From NCBI GenBank assembly GCA_964486045.1, contig CAZALK010000023.1:38231-65487 (forward strand): DNA of 27,257 nt. The letters are read 5' to 3'. Below, piece after piece: positions 11,253 to 25,646 of the stretch (position 1 is the first letter of the stretch; every line of letters begins with the position of its first letter). This stretch comes from an uncultured archaeon (GTDB lineage: Archaea; Asgardarchaeota; Lokiarchaeia; Sigyniarchaeales; SOKP01). Position numbers and translations under genes: made by a program. The notes under the pieces were generated by a model that ran no database searches, was not told where the DNA came from, and saw only the letters and a program-made list of their open reading frames with translations.

Positions 11253-13532
11253 ATGAGTGAAATGACAGACCTTAAACTATTTGTTGATGCAAACAACGAA
11301 GTAGAAGATAAAGTACTAATTTGTCAATCAAATGCAGACAAATTAGGAGTCAAAAATGGAGATACAGTAGAAGTAATAAACGTTGACCACAATTTGAAAA
11401 AATTTGCTCAAGTGGAGATATCAAATACCATGTTAGATTTTGCTGGACAATTCGCAAAAAACATCCTTGATGACCTTCAATTTTCTGGGGTAGAATTAAC
11501 GATTCGGAAAGCCAGTGATGCTGCTACACTTACTCCAACAGTAAGGATCCCCAAAGTCCCCCCAGCACAAACAGCACCAGCACCGACAGAACATTCAAAC
11601 TTATCACCATTACCTACACCTCCTCCCGATGTACAACTATCTCAACCCGTCTCACCACCTTTTACTACTCCTGAACCAGTACCACAACCTCAACCCGTCT
11701 CACCACCTTTTACTACTCCTGAACCAGTGCCACAACCTCAACCCGCCTCATCACCAGTTACCACTCCTGAACCGGTACCACAACCTACACCACCACTACA
11801 ACCTACACCAACACTACAACCTACACCAACACCACAACCTACACCACCACCACCATCAGCGCCTTTAGCACAACCCTCTTTATCTCCTTTACCCTCACCA
11901 CCACCCCAACCTGCTCCAATAGATATTCCACCTTCTCCAGTAACACAAAATATATCTGAACCTTCAGCCCCAGAAGACCCATACCCAAACAAAATCGATG
12001 TTAATGTTCTACAGGGTCAAAAACGTGGAATAATCCTTAAACCTGTTTTAGATAATAATATTGAGGGTGGAAGAGTGCAGATCAGTGAAGGTGTTCTTCA
12101 ACAACTAGGTCTTGGACAGGGTATGCTACTAGGGTGGGAAGATCCATTAACAAGAGCAATGGGTTCAGCGCGAATTGATGCAACAAACATTATTCCGAAT
12201 GAAATAAAGATGAGTTTTGATACTTATGAGGACACAAATATTAAAGCAGAACAAATAGTTGTATACTCAACAGAACCACCTATTGAAAAAGCTTCTGAAA
12301 TGATGTTAGAAGTTGAGTCCCAACCCAATTTAATGGGATATGCTTTAGTTAGCCCACGAACTCAACATTCTCTTTCAATTAAAACGGAAGATATTCTTGC
12401 TTTTGAAGATGAGCTGACTGGGGCTGTGGGTGCAGCAAAAGTAGAGATTATGGAAGATTCATCTGATAATGTAATAATTATTGATAGTGAAGTTTTAGAA
12501 GCCTCTGGCATAGGTAGTTTTGAAGTAAAAGTCTCCAAAAACCAGAGGTCAATTATTCCCTTACAGAGTATTACACTTGGGATATCACCGATATCTGGGG
12601 AAAATATGTGGGAGATTATAAGTACTGCTAGAGAGAATGTTGACTCATTAAAAGGGTGGATTTCAAATTATGTCATTTTTAAGGGCATAAAACTAAGATG
12701 GAATGCTGTAAATATCGCCTGTTCAATTCTTGATACTGTACCCGACTTGGTTGGGGATATTTTTGCGAAAGTTACCGAAAATACAACACTTTCTTTAAGT
12801 CCGATGGGTTTAATTCCCTTTAATGCAATCTTAGTAATTGATATAAGCAGAAGCATGATGGCTCGGGATGTACTAGTCACTAACATCGCCCCCGCAATAG
12901 AAGGAATTAAAGCCGCAATGGAATCAAGGGAAATTCAGGAATTTTTAAAACACTTCAAAGATGGGGTTAACATACCACGTAGGATATCTGCAGCTTTTGC
13001 CGCAGTCTTATTTTTGAGTGAAAAAGTTGGTAGGGGATTCGGAGAAAAAGTCTCCATAATTCGCTTCGCGGATGAGGCGCAGGTACTCCCCTTTGGTAAT
13101 TCATATTATATGGATTCTGCAAGTGGTAAGAAGGGAATTCTTGAGGAGGCCGCCCGTATGATTGTAGATCGTGTAGGAAATAGTTATGGTCAAGCTACTC
13201 AATTAGGTGCTGCCATGCGATCAGCACATCAAGTATTAGATAACTTTCAAAATATGAATCCAGACCAGCCAACGATGATTATACTACTAACAGATGGTTT
13301 AGGGACAGATGGTGACGCTTTCATCAATGAGATTAAGAAATTTTCAGAAAATCCCAATGTTGTAATTTACATAGTTGGATTAGGTAACCCCGATGATGAG
13401 TTAATGACTCGCGCTGCTGCTCTGTGTGGAGGAGAATACTTTAAACCAGAGGATGCTGGAGAGCTTTTAATCTGGTACTCAAAACGAGCACGGGATCTCA
13501 CAGTAAAACTAAAAGCTCACAAAGTCGAATAA
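11253..13532 (+). CDS. Multidomain protein: Cdc48-N-like double-psi barrel repeats, Pro-rich linker and C-terminal vWA domain
   Basis: Three related segments (ADKLGVKNGDTVEV, LQQLGLGQGMLLGWEDPLT, QHSLSIKTEDILAFEDELT). MIDAS motif DISRS, then ATQLG, LLTDG, IYIVGLG and LCGGEYF. Confidence 0.85.
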   Translation: MSEMTDLKLFVDANNEVEDKVLICQSNADKLGVKNGDTVEVINVDHNLKKFAQVEISNTMLDFAGQFAKNILDDLQFSGVELTIRKASDAATLTPTVRIPKVPPAQTAPAPTEHSNLSPLPTPPPDVQLSQPVSPPFTTPEPVPQPQPVSPPFTTPEPVPQPQPASSPVTTPEPVPQPTPPLQPTPTLQPTPTPQPTPPPPSAPLAQPSLSPLPSPPPQPAPIDIPPSPVTQNISEPSAPEDPYPNKIDVNVLQGQKRGIILKPVLDNNIEGGRVQISEGVLQQLGLGQGMLLGWEDPLTRAMGSARIDATNIIPNEIKMSFDTYEDTNIKAEQIVVYSTEPPIEKASEMMLEVESQPNLMGYALVSPRTQHSLSIKTEDILAFEDELTGAVGAAKVEIMEDSSDNVIIIDSEVLEASGIGSFEVKVSKNQRSIIPLQSITLGISPISGENMWEIISTARENVDSLKGWISNYVIFKGIKLRWNAVNIACSILDTVPDLVGDIFAKVTENTTLSLSPMGLIPFNAILVIDISRSMMARDVLVTNIAPAIEGIKAAMESREIQEFLKHFKDGVNIPRRISAAFAAVLFLSEKVGRGFGEKVSIIRFADEAQVLPFGNSYYMDSASGKKGILEEAARMIVDRVGNSYGQATQLGAAMRSAHQVLDNFQNMNPDQPTMIILLTDGLGTDGDAFINEIKKFSENPNVVIYIVGLGNPDDELMTRAAALCGGEYFKPEDAGELLIWYSKRARDLTVKLKAHKVE
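11641..11855 (+). repeat. Coding tandem repeats: 3 x 48 bp (QPVSPPFTTPEPVPQP) then ~4 x 18 bp (PTPPLQ-like)
   Basis: 48-bp units start at 11641, 11689 and 11737; 18-bp units start at 11785, 11803, 11821 and 11839. Confidence 0.92.
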
Positions 13533-13703
13533 AAATCTTTTTGTACTTCTCTCTTTTTCACTTCTTATGATTGCAAAAAAGAATTAAAGAAAATTATATA
13601 ACTCTATTAGTTCATATACTAAACAAGTTATCTATTATATATATTAAGACTTCTTTACAGAAATTTAATTGCATTTTGTAAGAAATGAAGTACATGAATA
13701 ATA

Positions 13704-16594: not shown

Positions 16595-16927
16595 ATAAAA
16601 GGATTAATTTTGGTAGTACTAGCTATTGGGTTTTTCATGTTTTATCAGCAGAGTCCGGTGTATGCGATAATAATAATTGGAATCTTTATCGCAGGGTATA
16701 TTTTTGTTAAATCACGAAAATCTGGTTCAGGTATTGGTGGGTTTTTAAAAGGGAAGTCGGCTCAACCGAATAATCATATGGATGATCTTATAACTTTGAT
16801 AATGCTCCAGCAATTGACTAACAATACAAACTCCCGTCTGGATAGCATTGAGGAACGCGATAATAATGATCATGAAAAGCATATTGAAAAAATAAAGCAA
16901 GAAACTCTCGCCCTTTTAGATGAGTAA
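16595..16927 (+). CDS. Small two-TM membrane protein; probable ATA start
   Basis: AGGTGA at 16583-16588, then in-frame ATA AAA GGA TTA ATT TTG. Its stop overlaps the next ATG. Confidence 0.7.
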   Translation: MKGLILVVLAIGFFMFYQQSPVYAIIIIGIFIAGYIFVKSRKSGSGIGGFLKGKSAQPNNHMDDLITLIMLQQLTNNTNSRLDSIEERDNNDHEKHIEKIKQETLALLDE

Positions 16928-17195
16928 AACAATGGATACAATGTTGCTTCAAGAATCGATTATAACAAGTATTCACGAATTGTTTCAAAAAAATACTTTA
17001 ATCTCTATATCAGGAAAAGCTGGAACAGGCAAAACATCTCTCTCGTTATATTTAATAGGGAATTTTCTTACATCTACCCAACCTTATGAGAGTTTATATT
17101 ACTCTTGTAGAAGAATTAATTTACGCCAAATTTTATCGAAAAAGAGATCCACTAAAAGTGTAAAATATTATCAAGCAATAGGGATAGTAAAGTAG
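16920..17195 (+). pseudogene. Truncated RecA/RadB/KaiC-like P-loop ATPase (N-terminal fragment)
   Basis: LISISGKAGTGKTSLSL Walker A motif. No Walker B; after about 17095 the frame runs into unrelated sequence and overlaps the kinase 3' end. Confidence 0.7.
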
Positions 17196-19237
17196 AATGT
17201 GCTTCCTTTGTTAGAACCATCTGATTCTAACCAGATTTTACCACCATAAGACTCTACAATTTTTTTTGAAATATACAGACCAAGACCAGTCCCATCAATC
17301 CCTAAATCAATCCCTTGACCATAACGCTCGATTTTTCCAAAACGGACAAAAACCCTCTCTTTCTGATCCTCCGTAAACCCAATCCCATCATCGGTCACAG
17401 AAATCAACACAAAATCATCTTTTATGTCTGTTTTTACTACAATTTTTCCATTTGGGGGGGTATACTTAATTGCATTAGATAGTAAATTGGAAAGAACGTC
17501 GTGAATTTCTTCTTTTTCAATATTTGCGTACAATTGGTCATGTATATTTAACTTAATAGATTGTTTCCTTTTTTTTGCCATAGATTCCATTTCGTTCACA
17601 CAATATTTGATAAGAAATGGTAAATCCTCTTTTTGTAAATTTGATTTTAATTCAATCGACTCTAATCGAGAGGATTTCAACAAATCATTAATGATATATT
17701 GAAGTCGTTCGCAACCATGACTTATCTCATTTAAGTGTGAAATAATTTCTGGATCCAGTTGATCAGTATATAATCTTAAAATGAGGTCAGAGAAACCTTT
17801 AATTGAAATGAGGGGTGTTTTTAATTCATGAGAAGCTCTTCTTAAAAATTCGGATTTCAATTGATTTAATTTTTGTAATTCAATTTCTGCCATTCTTTCT
17901 TTAGTAATATCTACGATTGTAGCAAAAATTGTAGGTTTCTCCTGAAACTGAAACATCTTAGAATAAACTTCTATCCATTTGATTTCTCCTGAGCTAGTAA
18001 TTATTCTAAGAGGATCACTAGTTCTATCTCCAAATACTCCTTCCTCCCTTTTATTAAATCGTTTTACCGCAATATCTCGATCTTCTGGGTGAATAAGTTT
18101 AAAAATATCAGTAACATTAATGACTTTTAGTTCTTCAGACGTATATCCGAATACTCTGTATATGGCATTGTTTAAATAGATAATGCGGCTACCTTGAATT
18201 ATTACAAAACCAGCAGAGGATTGTTCGGCAATTGTTCTAAATTTCTCTTCGGATTCTTTCAATTCTTGTGCCATTTGTTTGCGGTTAGTAATATCTATTA
18301 ATGAAATTAAATCGGCATTTCTCCCTTCATATATGAAAGATTTTGAAAAAATTTCAAGCCAAATGATATCTCCTCTCTTTTTTACGCCACGAAATTCGTA
18401 TCGATTTATAACATCTTCAATTCCTTTCTGTTTCTTTTCAGCTTGATTCTTTACGAATTCTAAATCTTCAGGGTGTACCATCTTCAAATAACCTCCCAAT
18501 TCCCAATTCAAAATTTCTTCTACGGAATAACCAAAAATTTTGCCAAATTGCTGATTCACGTATTTATAATGATCATCTTGTAAAATCCCTATCCCCGTTA
18601 GCGATTGTTCCGCGAGTACTTTAAATTGTTTGTTAGATTCTGCTAATCTTTGCATAGCTACTTTTATTTCGAAAAATTTTTTTAATCGCTTTCCTAAATC
18701 GTCTAGTAAACTTTCTTCCTCTTTAAGAAAGGGTTTATCTTCAAGGTAATAAACTTCAATCATCATCACTTTTTCATTTACAATAACATTAGTTGACAAT
18801 TTCCATTCAGTTTCTTTGAAATTACTTGTTTTGAATTCTTTATTATCAAAATATATTCTCGCACATGTTATTTCTGGAAATTGCAATGCAGGGAGGATCA
18901 AATCTAAGGTCCCTTGTAATATTGCTTCTTGTGATATTTCTGGATTCTCAACAAGCTTAGACAACCCATATAAACAAGTAAGTTCCTTAACACGTTCTCC
19001 TAAATTATGTTCAGATTCTATTAATTTTTGTACTGATTTTATTTGTTGTTTACTGTAATACTGAAGAACCACGCTTAAAGTGAAGATAATGCCAAATACA
19101 ACAAATCGAATCAAAAATTCATGAAACTCATTTGAAAATCTATGGAGATTAAAGAATATTAATTCAAATATGATACCCAGCGTCACAATTATCAGACCCG
19201 CCATTATTATCTTATATTTGGCAAGAAAGCTTTTCAT
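17171..19237 (-). CDS. Membrane-anchored PAS-PAS sensor histidine kinase
   Basis: Two TMs, ERVKELTCLY segment, two PAS domains (VHPED/IHPED, DIT), ASHELKTPL H-box, NLLSNAIKYT, DDGIG, GTGLGL. True start is probably ATG 19237 (MKSFLAK); the track start 19267 lies inside the inserted element. Confidence 0.93.
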   Translation of the reverse strand: MKSFLAKYKIIMAGLIIVTLGIIFELIFFNLHRFSNEFHEFLIRFVVFGIIFTLSVVLQYYSKQQIKSVQKLIESEHNLGERVKELTCLYGLSKLVENPEISQEAILQGTLDLILPALQFPEITCARIYFDNKEFKTSNFKETEWKLSTNVIVNEKVMMIEVYYLEDKPFLKEEESLLDDLGKRLKKFFEIKVAMQRLAESNKQFKVLAEQSLTGIGILQDDHYKYVNQQFGKIFGYSVEEILNWELGGYLKMVHPEDLEFVKNQAEKKQKGIEDVINRYEFRGVKKRGDIIWLEIFSKSFIYEGRNADLISLIDITNRKQMAQELKESEEKFRTIAEQSSAGFVIIQGSRIIYLNNAIYRVFGYTSEELKVINVTDIFKLIHPEDRDIAVKRFNKREEGVFGDRTSDPLRIITSSGEIKWIEVYSKMFQFQEKPTIFATIVDITKERMAEIELQKLNQLKSEFLRRASHELKTPLISIKGFSDLILRLYTDQLDPEIISHLNEISHGCERLQYIINDLLKSSRLESIELKSNLQKEDLPFLIKYCVNEMESMAKKRKQSIKLNIHDQLYANIEKEEIHDVLSNLLSNAIKYTPPNGKIVVKTDIKDDFVLISVTDDGIGFTEDQKERVFVRFGKIERYGQGIDLGIDGTGLGLYISKKIVESYGGKIWLESDGSNKGSTFYFTIPIA

Positions 19238-19250
19238 ATTTTTATATAAA

Positions 19251-20750
19251 AAACTTTCTATATACAATAATTTATAGATTGATAGCTGAGTAAAAAATTT
19301 TTTCCCAGCTTTTAAAAATTAAATCTTAAAATTTAGGAAAGTATAAAAGATTTCAGTAAAACCGAGTCTTAAACAACTCATTTTAGCTATTAAAAATAAA
19401 AAGAGAATAAAAAAATTATAACTTTTTTAGGATTTTTTTCATTTGTTCTTCAAATTTATCAAGTCTTAAGCTTAAATTAGCATTTTCTTTTACGGCTATT
19501 TCATTTTGTTCTGTTAATTTTGCTATTTCAGTTTTTAATTTAATTATTACTTCATTTGTCTTATTTAAAATTATGCAATCAACACAGATTTCTTTTTCTA
19601 CTCTGAGCCATTTGGTATAATACCATTCAAAGTTTTTAAGACTTGTTATATAAGCAGAATCTCTATAATTCGGTTCTCTTCCTTCTAAGTGTTGATTAAA
19701 TCTGTCATCAGATTCTTCCATATTAGCAATTGTATTAGTAAAATACTTTCTAAATGCATGAGTTTTTAGATTTCCATTAAATCCAAGTTTTTTAGAAATA
19801 GCTTTAACTCTGGCTAAATAATCAATACCTCTAATTCTTTTATTCTTTCTACTTAAAAAAAGTTTAGTTAAATCTATTTCTTCCATTTTATCTTTTGGAT
19901 AAATAGATGCTAATAATTCAGATAATTCAGTTGTAAAAAATAGAAAGTTAATAATAACTTTTTCTTTATGAGAAATAAAGTCTCTAATGAAATAATGTTT
20001 TTTATATTGCTCAATTTTATACTTTCCATTTGTTAGTTCATCTAAAACATCACTTATCCTTAATCCTGTTTGAGTTTCAAATTTATTGATTAAGTTATAT
20101 TGTCGTGATTCTAATAAATTTTGAATTTGTTTAATCATATCTTTATCTAAGTATATTTCTTCTTTATTAGCACCACTTTTCCTTGCTTTCATTCCATAAC
20201 TAATATTAACTCCTCTATCACTGAAAAAACCTTTAATTCTGCTTTGAATCATATTTCTGATTGATACATCACTTGGTCTTTTTCTAAAACCTAATTTCTT
20301 GATTTCTTCTTCTTCAGCATTATATAAGAAAGTAAGATATTTCTTTAATCTTGCATTTCTTCCATCTATATCTTCAGTTAATAACTCACTTGGATTATCA
20401 GTTTTATTAAAATCACAGTATTGTTGTAAATAACCTATATAACTTGTAAAACTAAATTTAGCAGGGTCTTTTCCTTCTTCAGTGTATTGGTCAATCATAT
20501 TCCTAATCCAAGATTGAATATCCTTGTTATCATAGATTGAATATAATTCTTTCCATCCTTTAATGTGTTTACCTTTTGCATTAGTATAACCATTGATTTT
20601 ATTTGTTCCAAATATTTTTTCGAAGTTTATTTCTTGATCAGTTATAATTTCTAACATTTTTCTTGATCAACTCCTTTTTAATTTTAGTTTGATTCATTAA
20701 GAATAATGAAAAAATTTAGACTTATAAATTTATGTATATACACAAACTTT
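19251..20750 (-). mobile_element. Minimal tyrosine-recombinase-only integrative element (1493 bp core to core)
   Basis: 7-bp direct core AAACTTT at 19251-19257 and 20744-20750. Inner inverted arms at 19259-19276 and 20723-20740 match 16/18. The outer arms rejoin into a perfect palindrome. Confidence 0.7.
19416..20657 (-). CDS. Tyrosine recombinase/integrase with C-terminal coiled coil
   Basis: TGLRISD (R), HAFRK (HxxR), QHLEGR, DSAY (catalytic Y). SD AAGGAG upstream. Confidence 0.9.
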   Translation of the reverse strand: MLEIITDQEINFEKIFGTNKINGYTNAKGKHIKGWKELYSIYDNKDIQSWIRNMIDQYTEEGKDPAKFSFTSYIGYLQQYCDFNKTDNPSELLTEDIDGRNARLKKYLTFLYNAEEEEIKKLGFRKRPSDVSIRNMIQSRIKGFFSDRGVNISYGMKARKSGANKEEIYLDKDMIKQIQNLLESRQYNLINKFETQTGLRISDVLDELTNGKYKIEQYKKHYFIRDFISHKEKVIINFLFFTTELSELLASIYPKDKMEEIDLTKLFLSRKNKRIRGIDYLARVKAISKKLGFNGNLKTHAFRKYFTNTIANMEESDDRFNQHLEGREPNYRDSAYITSLKNFEWYYTKWLRVEKEICVDCIILNKTNEVIIKLKTEIAKLTEQNEIAVKENANLSLRLDKFEEQMKKILKKL

Positions 20751-20784
20751 TATATAAAAATTTATATTTAACTTTTTACTAATA

Positions 20785-21027
20785 GGAAATGTCTATCTAT
20801 TCATGATTGGTGTATCACGAGAATTTCAAGGAAAAGGTTTTGGGGGAAAATTATTAAGAGCAGTTATAGAAAAAGCTGATACAGAAAGAAAACCTATGTA
20901 TTTGGGGACTCAAAATGAAAAGAATGTTTCCCTCTATGAAAAGTATGGATTTTATGTTTATAAAAAAATAAATCTTCCAGAACCATTGAATTTACCAATG
21001 TGGTTAATAGTTCGAGATGATCGATAA
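20785..21027 (+). pseudogene. C-terminal remnant of a GNAT acetyltransferase
   Basis: YLFMIGVSREFQGKGFGGKLL (motif A) and NVSLYEKYGF. The N-terminal half is absent. Confidence 0.75.
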
Positions 21028-21700: not shown

Positions 21701-21889
21701 TTTTCGGAAAATCCAAATGTAGTTATCTACATAGTTGGATTAGGAAATCCTGATGATGAATTAATGACACGTGCTGCTACTTTATGCGGTGGGGAGTATT
21801 TTAAGCCAGAAGATGCAGGAGAACTTTTAATTTGGTATTCAAAACGAGCTAGAGATCTCACAGTAAAATTGAAGGCTCATAAAGAATAA
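21701..21889 (+). pseudogene. Orphan 3' fragment of the vWA gene (right island boundary)
   Basis: FSENPNVVIYIVGLGNPDD...KLKAHKE; 32 differences over 183 nt versus 13341-13523 by manual count, nearly all synonymous. Confidence 0.92.
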
Positions 21890-21989
21890 AAAACGAGTTT
21901 CATTTTTTCTCTTTATAATAAATTTCTTGTTAATCATTCTTTCTAATTCAAGATCTATCTCCATCCTTCAATTGCATGCTTGCTAAACT

Positions 21990-23109: not shown

Positions 23110-23307
23110 TTGCTATATAAAAAAACTAGTTCATATAGTTATGAACAATACCAATCCGCAATCAAAAAGTTAAAAACATTTATTCTTAAGTACACAGGCA
23201 ACGTTTACACCCCACTAATTAAAAAGTATAGATCTCTAAAAGACGATGTTAATTCACCGTTAGAGCAGTTTTGTTTTACCGTCGTGGATGCAATCAATAC
23301 CAGTTAG
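23110..23307 (+). pseudogene. 5' half of a ~126-aa hypothetical gene split by the 2.16 kb insert
   Basis: Ends ...SPLEQFCFTVVDAINT and stops just after repeat copy 1; joins in frame with 25457-25646. Confidence 0.75.
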
Positions 23308-25407: not shown

Positions 25408-25646
25408 ATTCACCGTTAGAGCAGTTTTGTTTTATCGTTGTGGATGCAATCAATACAAAACTTGAAAAGGTTACAAAGAAGTTTGCTATGGATATTAACG
25501 AATTATATTTTGATGATGGTTTAGAACTTAGCATAACGGTTAAGAACAGTCTATTGAGTAAATTCCCAATTAGACACCTATATTTTGACGATTTGGACAC
25601 CAAGAACAAGAAAGTGATAATTCAGATCCTCAAAACCGAGTTCTGA
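25408..25646 (+). pseudogene. 3' half of the split hypothetical gene
   Basis: Starts in repeat copy 2 (SPLEQFCFIVVDAINTKLEK...). Confidence 0.75.

Follow-up and report, generated by a model that had tools for sequence, protein, structure and literature searches.

A 1.5-kb single-integrase element in a Lokiarchaeial genome: a probable remnant of a larger integrative element with Tn916/Tn1549-like insertion sites

The window examined here (the whole 27,257-nt stretch of DNA) contains a 1.5-kb element with a single tyrosine recombinase gene, which probably arose by deletion from a larger Lokiarchaeial integrative element (a provirus or a plasmid-like element), with the integrase and both ends kept and the cargo lost. 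Based on sequence comparison with relatives, we infer that the direction of change was deletion. The remnant itself is modest, and truncated proviral leftovers are common; its value is that both ends and the enzyme lie within 1.5 kb and expose the mechanism of the family. The interest lies mainly in the integrase family and its testable mechanism, and the relatives of the element point to an Asgard family that inserts at loose AT-rich sites much like Tn916 and Tn1549. The original prediction had placed the element in an Asgard archaeon; a genus-mate is recorded as Promethearchaeota, which makes the host a Lokiarchaeon.

Integrase and layout of the element

The only gene between the two sites, as previously predicted, encodes a 413-aa tyrosine recombinase (PF00589, E 2.4e-7) with an intact reading frame. 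The CB plus catalytic fold and the R-K-H-R-H/W-Y residues by which tyrosine recombinases are recognized were found in this protein, and R200, K231, H300, R303 and Y336 were invariant among 46 homologues. The second catalytic His position is occupied by R327; across the homologues it was His in 25, Arg in 17 (including the clade of the window) and Ala in 4, and the occurrence of Arg in 17 of the 46 indicates a clade trait rather than a private lesion. The AlphaFold model (mean pLDDT 90) matched XerA and the integron, lambda and Tn1549 integrases. The Tn1549 integrase (Z 12.5 at 15% identity) ranked below XerA (Z 16.4) and was tied with other recombinases. Residues 1–43 were unmatched in the main recombinase alignments, and a coiled coil is present at the C terminus (approximately residues 367–412).

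The layout of the locus is shown in Table 1. Misassembly of the element could be ruled out, because the independent assembly contig L131 is 100% identical across both ends. At the level of sequence, the element between its genuine ends is real, and so are these ends and the fused junction form described below. The best inverted match between the flanks (39 nt, 82%) was the top inverted repeat, and its score of 25 was the highest of 383 AT-matched gene-flank pairs in the genome (runner-up, 21). In the congener G022, which lacks the element next to its kinase homologue, the left and right host flanks are contiguous around one T/A tract. The originally predicted mobile element bounded by recombinase sites, and its insertion at an AT-rich TATA-like palindrome between these host flanks, are supported. 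A AAAAAGTTAAATA-type motif lies directly upstream of the G022 kinase homologue, and the BRE/TATA-like AAAAAGTTAAATA was probably the original promoter of the kinase gene. No tRNA was present in the window.

Table 1. Features of the element and its immediate surroundings (positions in the window)
Feature	Position	Strand	Remarks
Host PAS-PAS histidine kinase gene	17171..19237	-	ATG 2 nt from distal repeat
Distal junction, 13-bp direct repeat TTTTATATAAAAA	19240..19252	none	Longest exact repeat common to both ends
Distal 6-bp spacer	19244-19249		T-tract and A-tract on either side; reads TTATAT in the orientation of the gene
Distal inverted arm	19250..19277	-	Proximal 11 bp match the other arm at 8/11
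Conserved subterminal block, distal end	19312..19374	-	Nucleotide matches to L047, L003 and L013
Putative deletion join	19362..19415	-	Post-integrase T-rich tract fused to distal end
Tyrosine recombinase/integrase gene, 413 aa	19416..20657	-	PF00589 match
Integrase-proximal inverted arm	20723..20751	-	
Proximal junction, second TTTTATATAAAAA copy	20748..20760	none	Spacer 20752-20757
Displaced host DNA, BRE/TATA-like AAAAAGTTAAATA	20763..20777	-	Motif directly upstream of kinase homologue in G022 C264

Origin of the element and rival explanations

With 48 representatives at E below 1e-30, the integrase family is a small one; its members occurred in 9 of 400 genomes of the phylum, all in the class of the window. 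In homologues with enough flanking sequence, the integrase marks one end of a larger element, whose size is ∼9–25 kb or above, and mostly points inward, with the exception of G075, in which it lies inside a gene array; it should be noted that many homologues are located on short contigs, where a solo form is possible. The cargo contexts include head-tail proviruses (G024 with TerL and MCP, G123 with TerL), a 23-kb Topo VI-A-like (Topo mini-A) element, a primase-bearing element and large unclassified elements; in addition, the first 11 kb of a 25-kb contig with a family integrase consist of non-host genes. Right ends were not found for G049, G123, L020, L036 and others, and searches of viral contigs gave no homologue.

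Several of these relatives deserve a brief description. The integrated head-tail proviruses of G024 (C28; L089, L109) and G123 (C78; L103) are ∼17–20 kb long, carry the integrase at one end and have non-tRNA left junctions. The 23-kb element L113 (LAZR01000720.1), from Loki's Castle sediment, encodes a Topo VI-A-like protein and has a weak primase/helicase match, and no capsid gene was recognized among the proteins scanned. It is probably circular, since three contigs of 22.5–23.5 kb have the integrase at the start, in the middle and at the end, respectively. In L020 (820–3200), the integrase is accompanied by a single 64-aa gene, after which come host-like signalling genes; this locus, in which no second arm could be clearly discerned, is possibly another short remnant.

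The window integrase nests within a clade with 100/99 support, whose other members carry cargo. After its stop codon, approximately 40–80 bases resemble the post-integrase DNA of relatives, and the distal end follows; a small gene located behind the integrase in relatives, 57 aa long in L113, is absent. In a second sample, the site is occupied by a strain variant that has 28 more bases at the join, which resemble the post-integrase DNA of L047, and six substitutions; given these additional bases, further shrinkage seems to have occurred in the window copy. No exact parent element turned up; the integrase closest to that of the window is 70% identical. The subterminal block is similar to L047 (47 nt, 89%), L003 (63 nt, 87%) and L013 (139 nt, 75%), lies upstream of the integrase and across the fused junction in large relatives, and is a possible accessory binding site.

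The genome of the window (G000) holds a second family integrase on C25, which is 82% identical to that of the G123 provirus. At C25:1600-3400 (L009), scraps of the same proviral genes and then host DNA come after this integrase; inspection by eye also assigned a probable tnpB fragment and a grpE-like gene behind it. The C25 locus is a parallel remnant of a G123-like head-tail provirus.

The alternative that survives best is the idea of the original prediction with its crossover corrected, namely a tyrosine-recombinase transposon of IS size that is autonomous and relocates unaided among T4-N6-A4 sites, for which a deletion origin would also be compatible. We consider it unlikely. The ORF is intact with its five invariant catalytic residues, both proximal arms match at 8/11 in the family register, the identical spacers would allow clean excision, and dN/dS between the window integrase and its relatives is ∼0.24–0.33. 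However, the last value, obtained against 70% identical relatives, mostly reflects time spent inside a large element, and the 3 non-synonymous changes and 1 synonymous change that separate the window copy from the second-sample variant are too few to gauge selection. Moreover, the genome has one copy despite 139 close TTTTTNNATAAAA sites, the only near-identical copy sits at the same site, the outer TATATA box of the distal arm is displaced 2 nt toward the spacer relative to homologues, and no second two-ended solo element was found among ∼35 loci. Neither a second copy nor a non-autonomous derivative was detected in G000, and no dispersed copies at other sites were detected in the 400 phylum genomes searched. 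Together with the location of homologues in larger elements, which is essentially what the original prediction itself had named as counting against it, these data do not favor an autonomous IS-sized family.

Even as a deletion remnant, the 1508-bp element may still be excised at present: the intact frame, the identical spacers and the proximal arms matching at 8/11 in the family register make excision plausible. No excised form was seen in assembled contigs, and contig breaks of L125 and L126 near the element ends have offsets that do not fit a simple excision branch.

Two further explanations concern the surroundings of the element. The first is a domesticated switch, in which excision or inversion would reconnect the histidine kinase with its promoter. 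The element does part the kinase ATG from the conserved upstream motif, and excision would restore the link, but the element is absent from this locus in the one congener with a kinase homologue, no alternative state was seen, with a Logan contig continuous at both ends, and the surrounding island holds truncated genes; such a switch is therefore very improbable. The second, which is hardly credible, is that the integrase serves a larger island. The 3′ end of a VWA gene is duplicated and diverged (13341-13535 and 21701-21892), and the copies bracket an ∼8.3-kb accessory island that contains the element and no other recombinase. However, these repeats are only 82% identical and have no arms, whereas integrases of this family lie directly beside the end of their own element, and positions 19240 and 20760 already account for both ends here.

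Crossover site, spacers and proposed mechanism

The two TTTTATATAAAAA copies are spaced 1508 bp apart, whereas copies of the shorter AAACTTT repeat (19251 and 20744), nested in the site sequences that were quoted exactly in the original prediction, are spaced 1493 bp apart. Junctions of relatives distinguish between them. Nucleotide similarity to L013, L047, L014 and L040 starts at window position 20760 (blastn), and window 19240-19374, which is downstream of the integrase here, is found upstream of the integrase in L013, L047 and L040, indicating that these loci are in a fused-end form. The order window distal end, core, window proximal end was observed upstream of the integrase in L113, L114, L047, L040 and L054, the core being that of the distal junction, and relatives up to 70% identity carry such a fused junction, which retains the T-tract, spacer and A-tract. 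Five close homologous junctions all aligned better to a 1508-bp than to a 1493-bp circle (scores 101/69, 93/65, 77/42, 86/57 and 66/42). On these alignments, the crossover lies at the 13-bp TTTTATATAAAAA (T-tract, 6-bp spacer and A-tract) and not at AAACTTT, the exact cleavage positions being putative; the element had been mis-delimited by 15 bp in the earlier reading, which overlooked the longer repeat. The predicted circle would be 1508 bp, and the predicted empty site would consist of one palindrome immediately in front of the kinase ATG.

The earlier model of an AAACTTT core, a 14-3-14 palindromic target and a 1493-bp circle is thus largely refuted: the 7-bp repeat is real and the reconstructed palindrome perfect, and the empty G022 locus is neutral between the models (scores 58 vs 63, too diverged to discriminate), but the homologous junctions rule out this core, as the five close fused ones retain the TTTT-N6-AAAA box, which under the model should stay behind in the host, the distal end of homologues shows no conservation of AAACTTT, the palindrome arises arithmetically from joining at AAACTTT with the second TTTTATATAAAAA copy as its second half, and G022 has no double palindrome. 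Functional TATA boxes as the target were also unsupported; the window site adjoins the ATG, and the promoter-like motif is ∼10 bp further out.

In 13 junction-type loci, the inverted arms are in register around a 6-bp spacer, whose sequence was TTATAT (six loci), ATTAAA (two loci), TTTAAT, TTTCAT, TCTCAT, ATATAA or TTACAT. In a blind scan, arms matching at ≥12/15 around a 6-bp spacer were present in 8 of 14 junction-type loci; the corresponding figures were one of 18 for loci that were integrated or at a contig start and 3.7% for 723 host regions matched in AT content. This comparison is not a formal test, since the junction loci are partly related (L113/L114, L047/L040 and L021/L023); in addition, the assignment of short contigs to these classes was made partly by eye. 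The register of G024 was ambiguous in the scan.

The target TTTT-N6-AAAA in AT-rich DNA was found at the window ends, at the junction loci and at an empty site in G067, and by sequence the crossover spacer is non-identical among sites in two comparisons, which represent few independent cases. First, L113 and L114 represent the same 23-kb element in two assemblies; their 12,022 aligned bp contain just two substitutions, which both fall in the spacer, and a 30-bp repeat indel; the spacer difference could reflect strain variation or an assembly consensus effect. Second, a 9.4-kb element in G005 is inserted at a T-tract/A-tract after xerA, between xerA and cdc6, which are adjacent in the window genome and its congeners. 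The spacers of its two ends differ (TTATAT and TTATAC), and the empty site of G067 (99% identical at xerA) reads TTTT-TTATAG-AAAA, with the G kept in several other genomes; each of these differences between strains amounts to a single base, and an additional base is present nearby in G005. The two spacers of the window element are identical, as strict homology would also give. From these few cases, we infer a spacer-mismatch-tolerant (homology-independent) exchange.

In the proposed mechanism, the recombinase would bind inverted arms that are short and imperfect and terminate in TTTT and AAAA, and would exchange strands across the 6-bp spacer, at presumed cleavage positions, joining the ends into a circle. 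Insertion would then take place into intergenic T-tract/N6/A-tract sites with tolerance of spacer mismatch, as Tn916 and Tn1549 integrases do. The parent element would have inserted 2 nt upstream of the kinase start codon and subsequently shrunk to 1508 bp. If confirmed, this mechanism would explain how Lokiarchaeial proviruses land outside tRNA genes, beside promoters and start codons, and would offer a compact single-enzyme insertion tool for Asgard archaea, for which we know of no genetics. A bolder extension, to which we would give only a low probability, is that the integrase family allows temperate head-tail viruses and plasmid-like elements to enter a large number of AT-rich intergenic sites with no need for spacer homology and that the 1508-bp form still excises and re-inserts. 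If true, it would imply transposing viruses driven by a tyrosine recombinase and a minimal prokaryotic recombinase-only transposon.

Comparison with known systems and neighbouring observations

The closest parallel in site structure is with Tn916 and Tn1549, which share a tyrosine recombinase at the element end, short imperfect AT-rich inverted ends, a T4-N6-A4 target, a variable crossover spacer and a circular junction form (PMC5871717, PMC5812530). The Tn1549 target consensus is TTTT-n6-AAAA with a crossover of 5–7 nt (PMC5871717), and homology between coupling sequences is not needed for Tn916 (PMC5812530). On the other hand, the window integrase shows no close sequence relationship to theirs, possesses a coiled coil at its C terminus, and belongs to a family whose elements include head-tail proviruses. 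Neither xis nor conjugation genes were found, the window element being an integrase alone and the ORF lists of relatives having been scanned partly and by eye. The element works like Tn916/Tn1549 in site structure and is probably not a member of that group. A 2021 review described archaeal recombinases as having no direct relationship to those of Tn916, and archaeal att sites as mostly exact common stretches in tRNA genes (PMC8371274). In a limited literature search, we found no description of variable-spacer, Tn916-like spacer-tolerant integration in archaea and no published description of this Asgard integrase family.

The archaeal XerA, SSV1, pTN3, SNJ2 and pNOB8-type integrases are alike in fold and catalytic residues, XerA being the best structural and profile match. 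However, the window integrase scored far below the XerA cut-off (NCBIfam NF040815, 32.3 vs 220 bits), and a distinct xerA-like gene is located next to cdc6 on C18 of the host genome. In contrast to the suicidal SSV/pTN3 integrases, the gene is not split, its sites are outside the gene and there is no tRNA target.

Among mobile elements of Asgard archaea, Yucahu-i of Atabeyarchaeia has an 11-bp AT-rich att (PMC11529989), Fylgjavirus 1 of Lokiarchaeia is a provirus that is inserted between genes and bears a terminal inverted repeat (10.64898/2026.02.13.705702), the 17–20 kb of the G024 and G123 proviruses falls within the size range of verdandiviruses (10.1101/2021.07.29.453957), and the Topo VI-A-like gene of the 23-kb relative recalls the Topo mini-A elements. 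Neither a variable spacer nor an integrase-only form is reported for these four in the parts of the sources consulted.

The Crypton-like character originally suggested holds for the layout, whereas end structure and copy number do not fit. The fold match of the integrase to Ndc10, which we take to be Crypton-derived, is weak (Z 6.0–6.9), and Ndc10 was the only Crypton-type structure listed in the fold search, where the absence of others carries no weight; the DUF3504-type Crypton family was not among the 25 families displayed for 46 members. Cryptons resemble the element in their recombinase-only layout and in short direct repeats from target microhomology, but they have 4–6 bp direct repeats and no terminal inverted repeats (PMC13465315), whereas the window element has ∼29-bp inverted arms, a 13-bp repeat and a single copy.

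Some other rearranged genes were observed in the window. A 5′-truncated GNAT acetyltransferase gene (20789-21027) starts ∼28 bp beyond the element; an intact 202-aa paralogue is present on C3, and congeners have ∼90% identical genes. A truncated RadA/KaiC-like ATPase gene (16920-17195) has an intact 240-aa paralogue in a similar gene block on C1. Finally, a 49-bp direct repeat (47/49; 23252-23300 and 25408-25456) surrounds a 2.16-kb insert, with related sequences on C7, C10 and C13.
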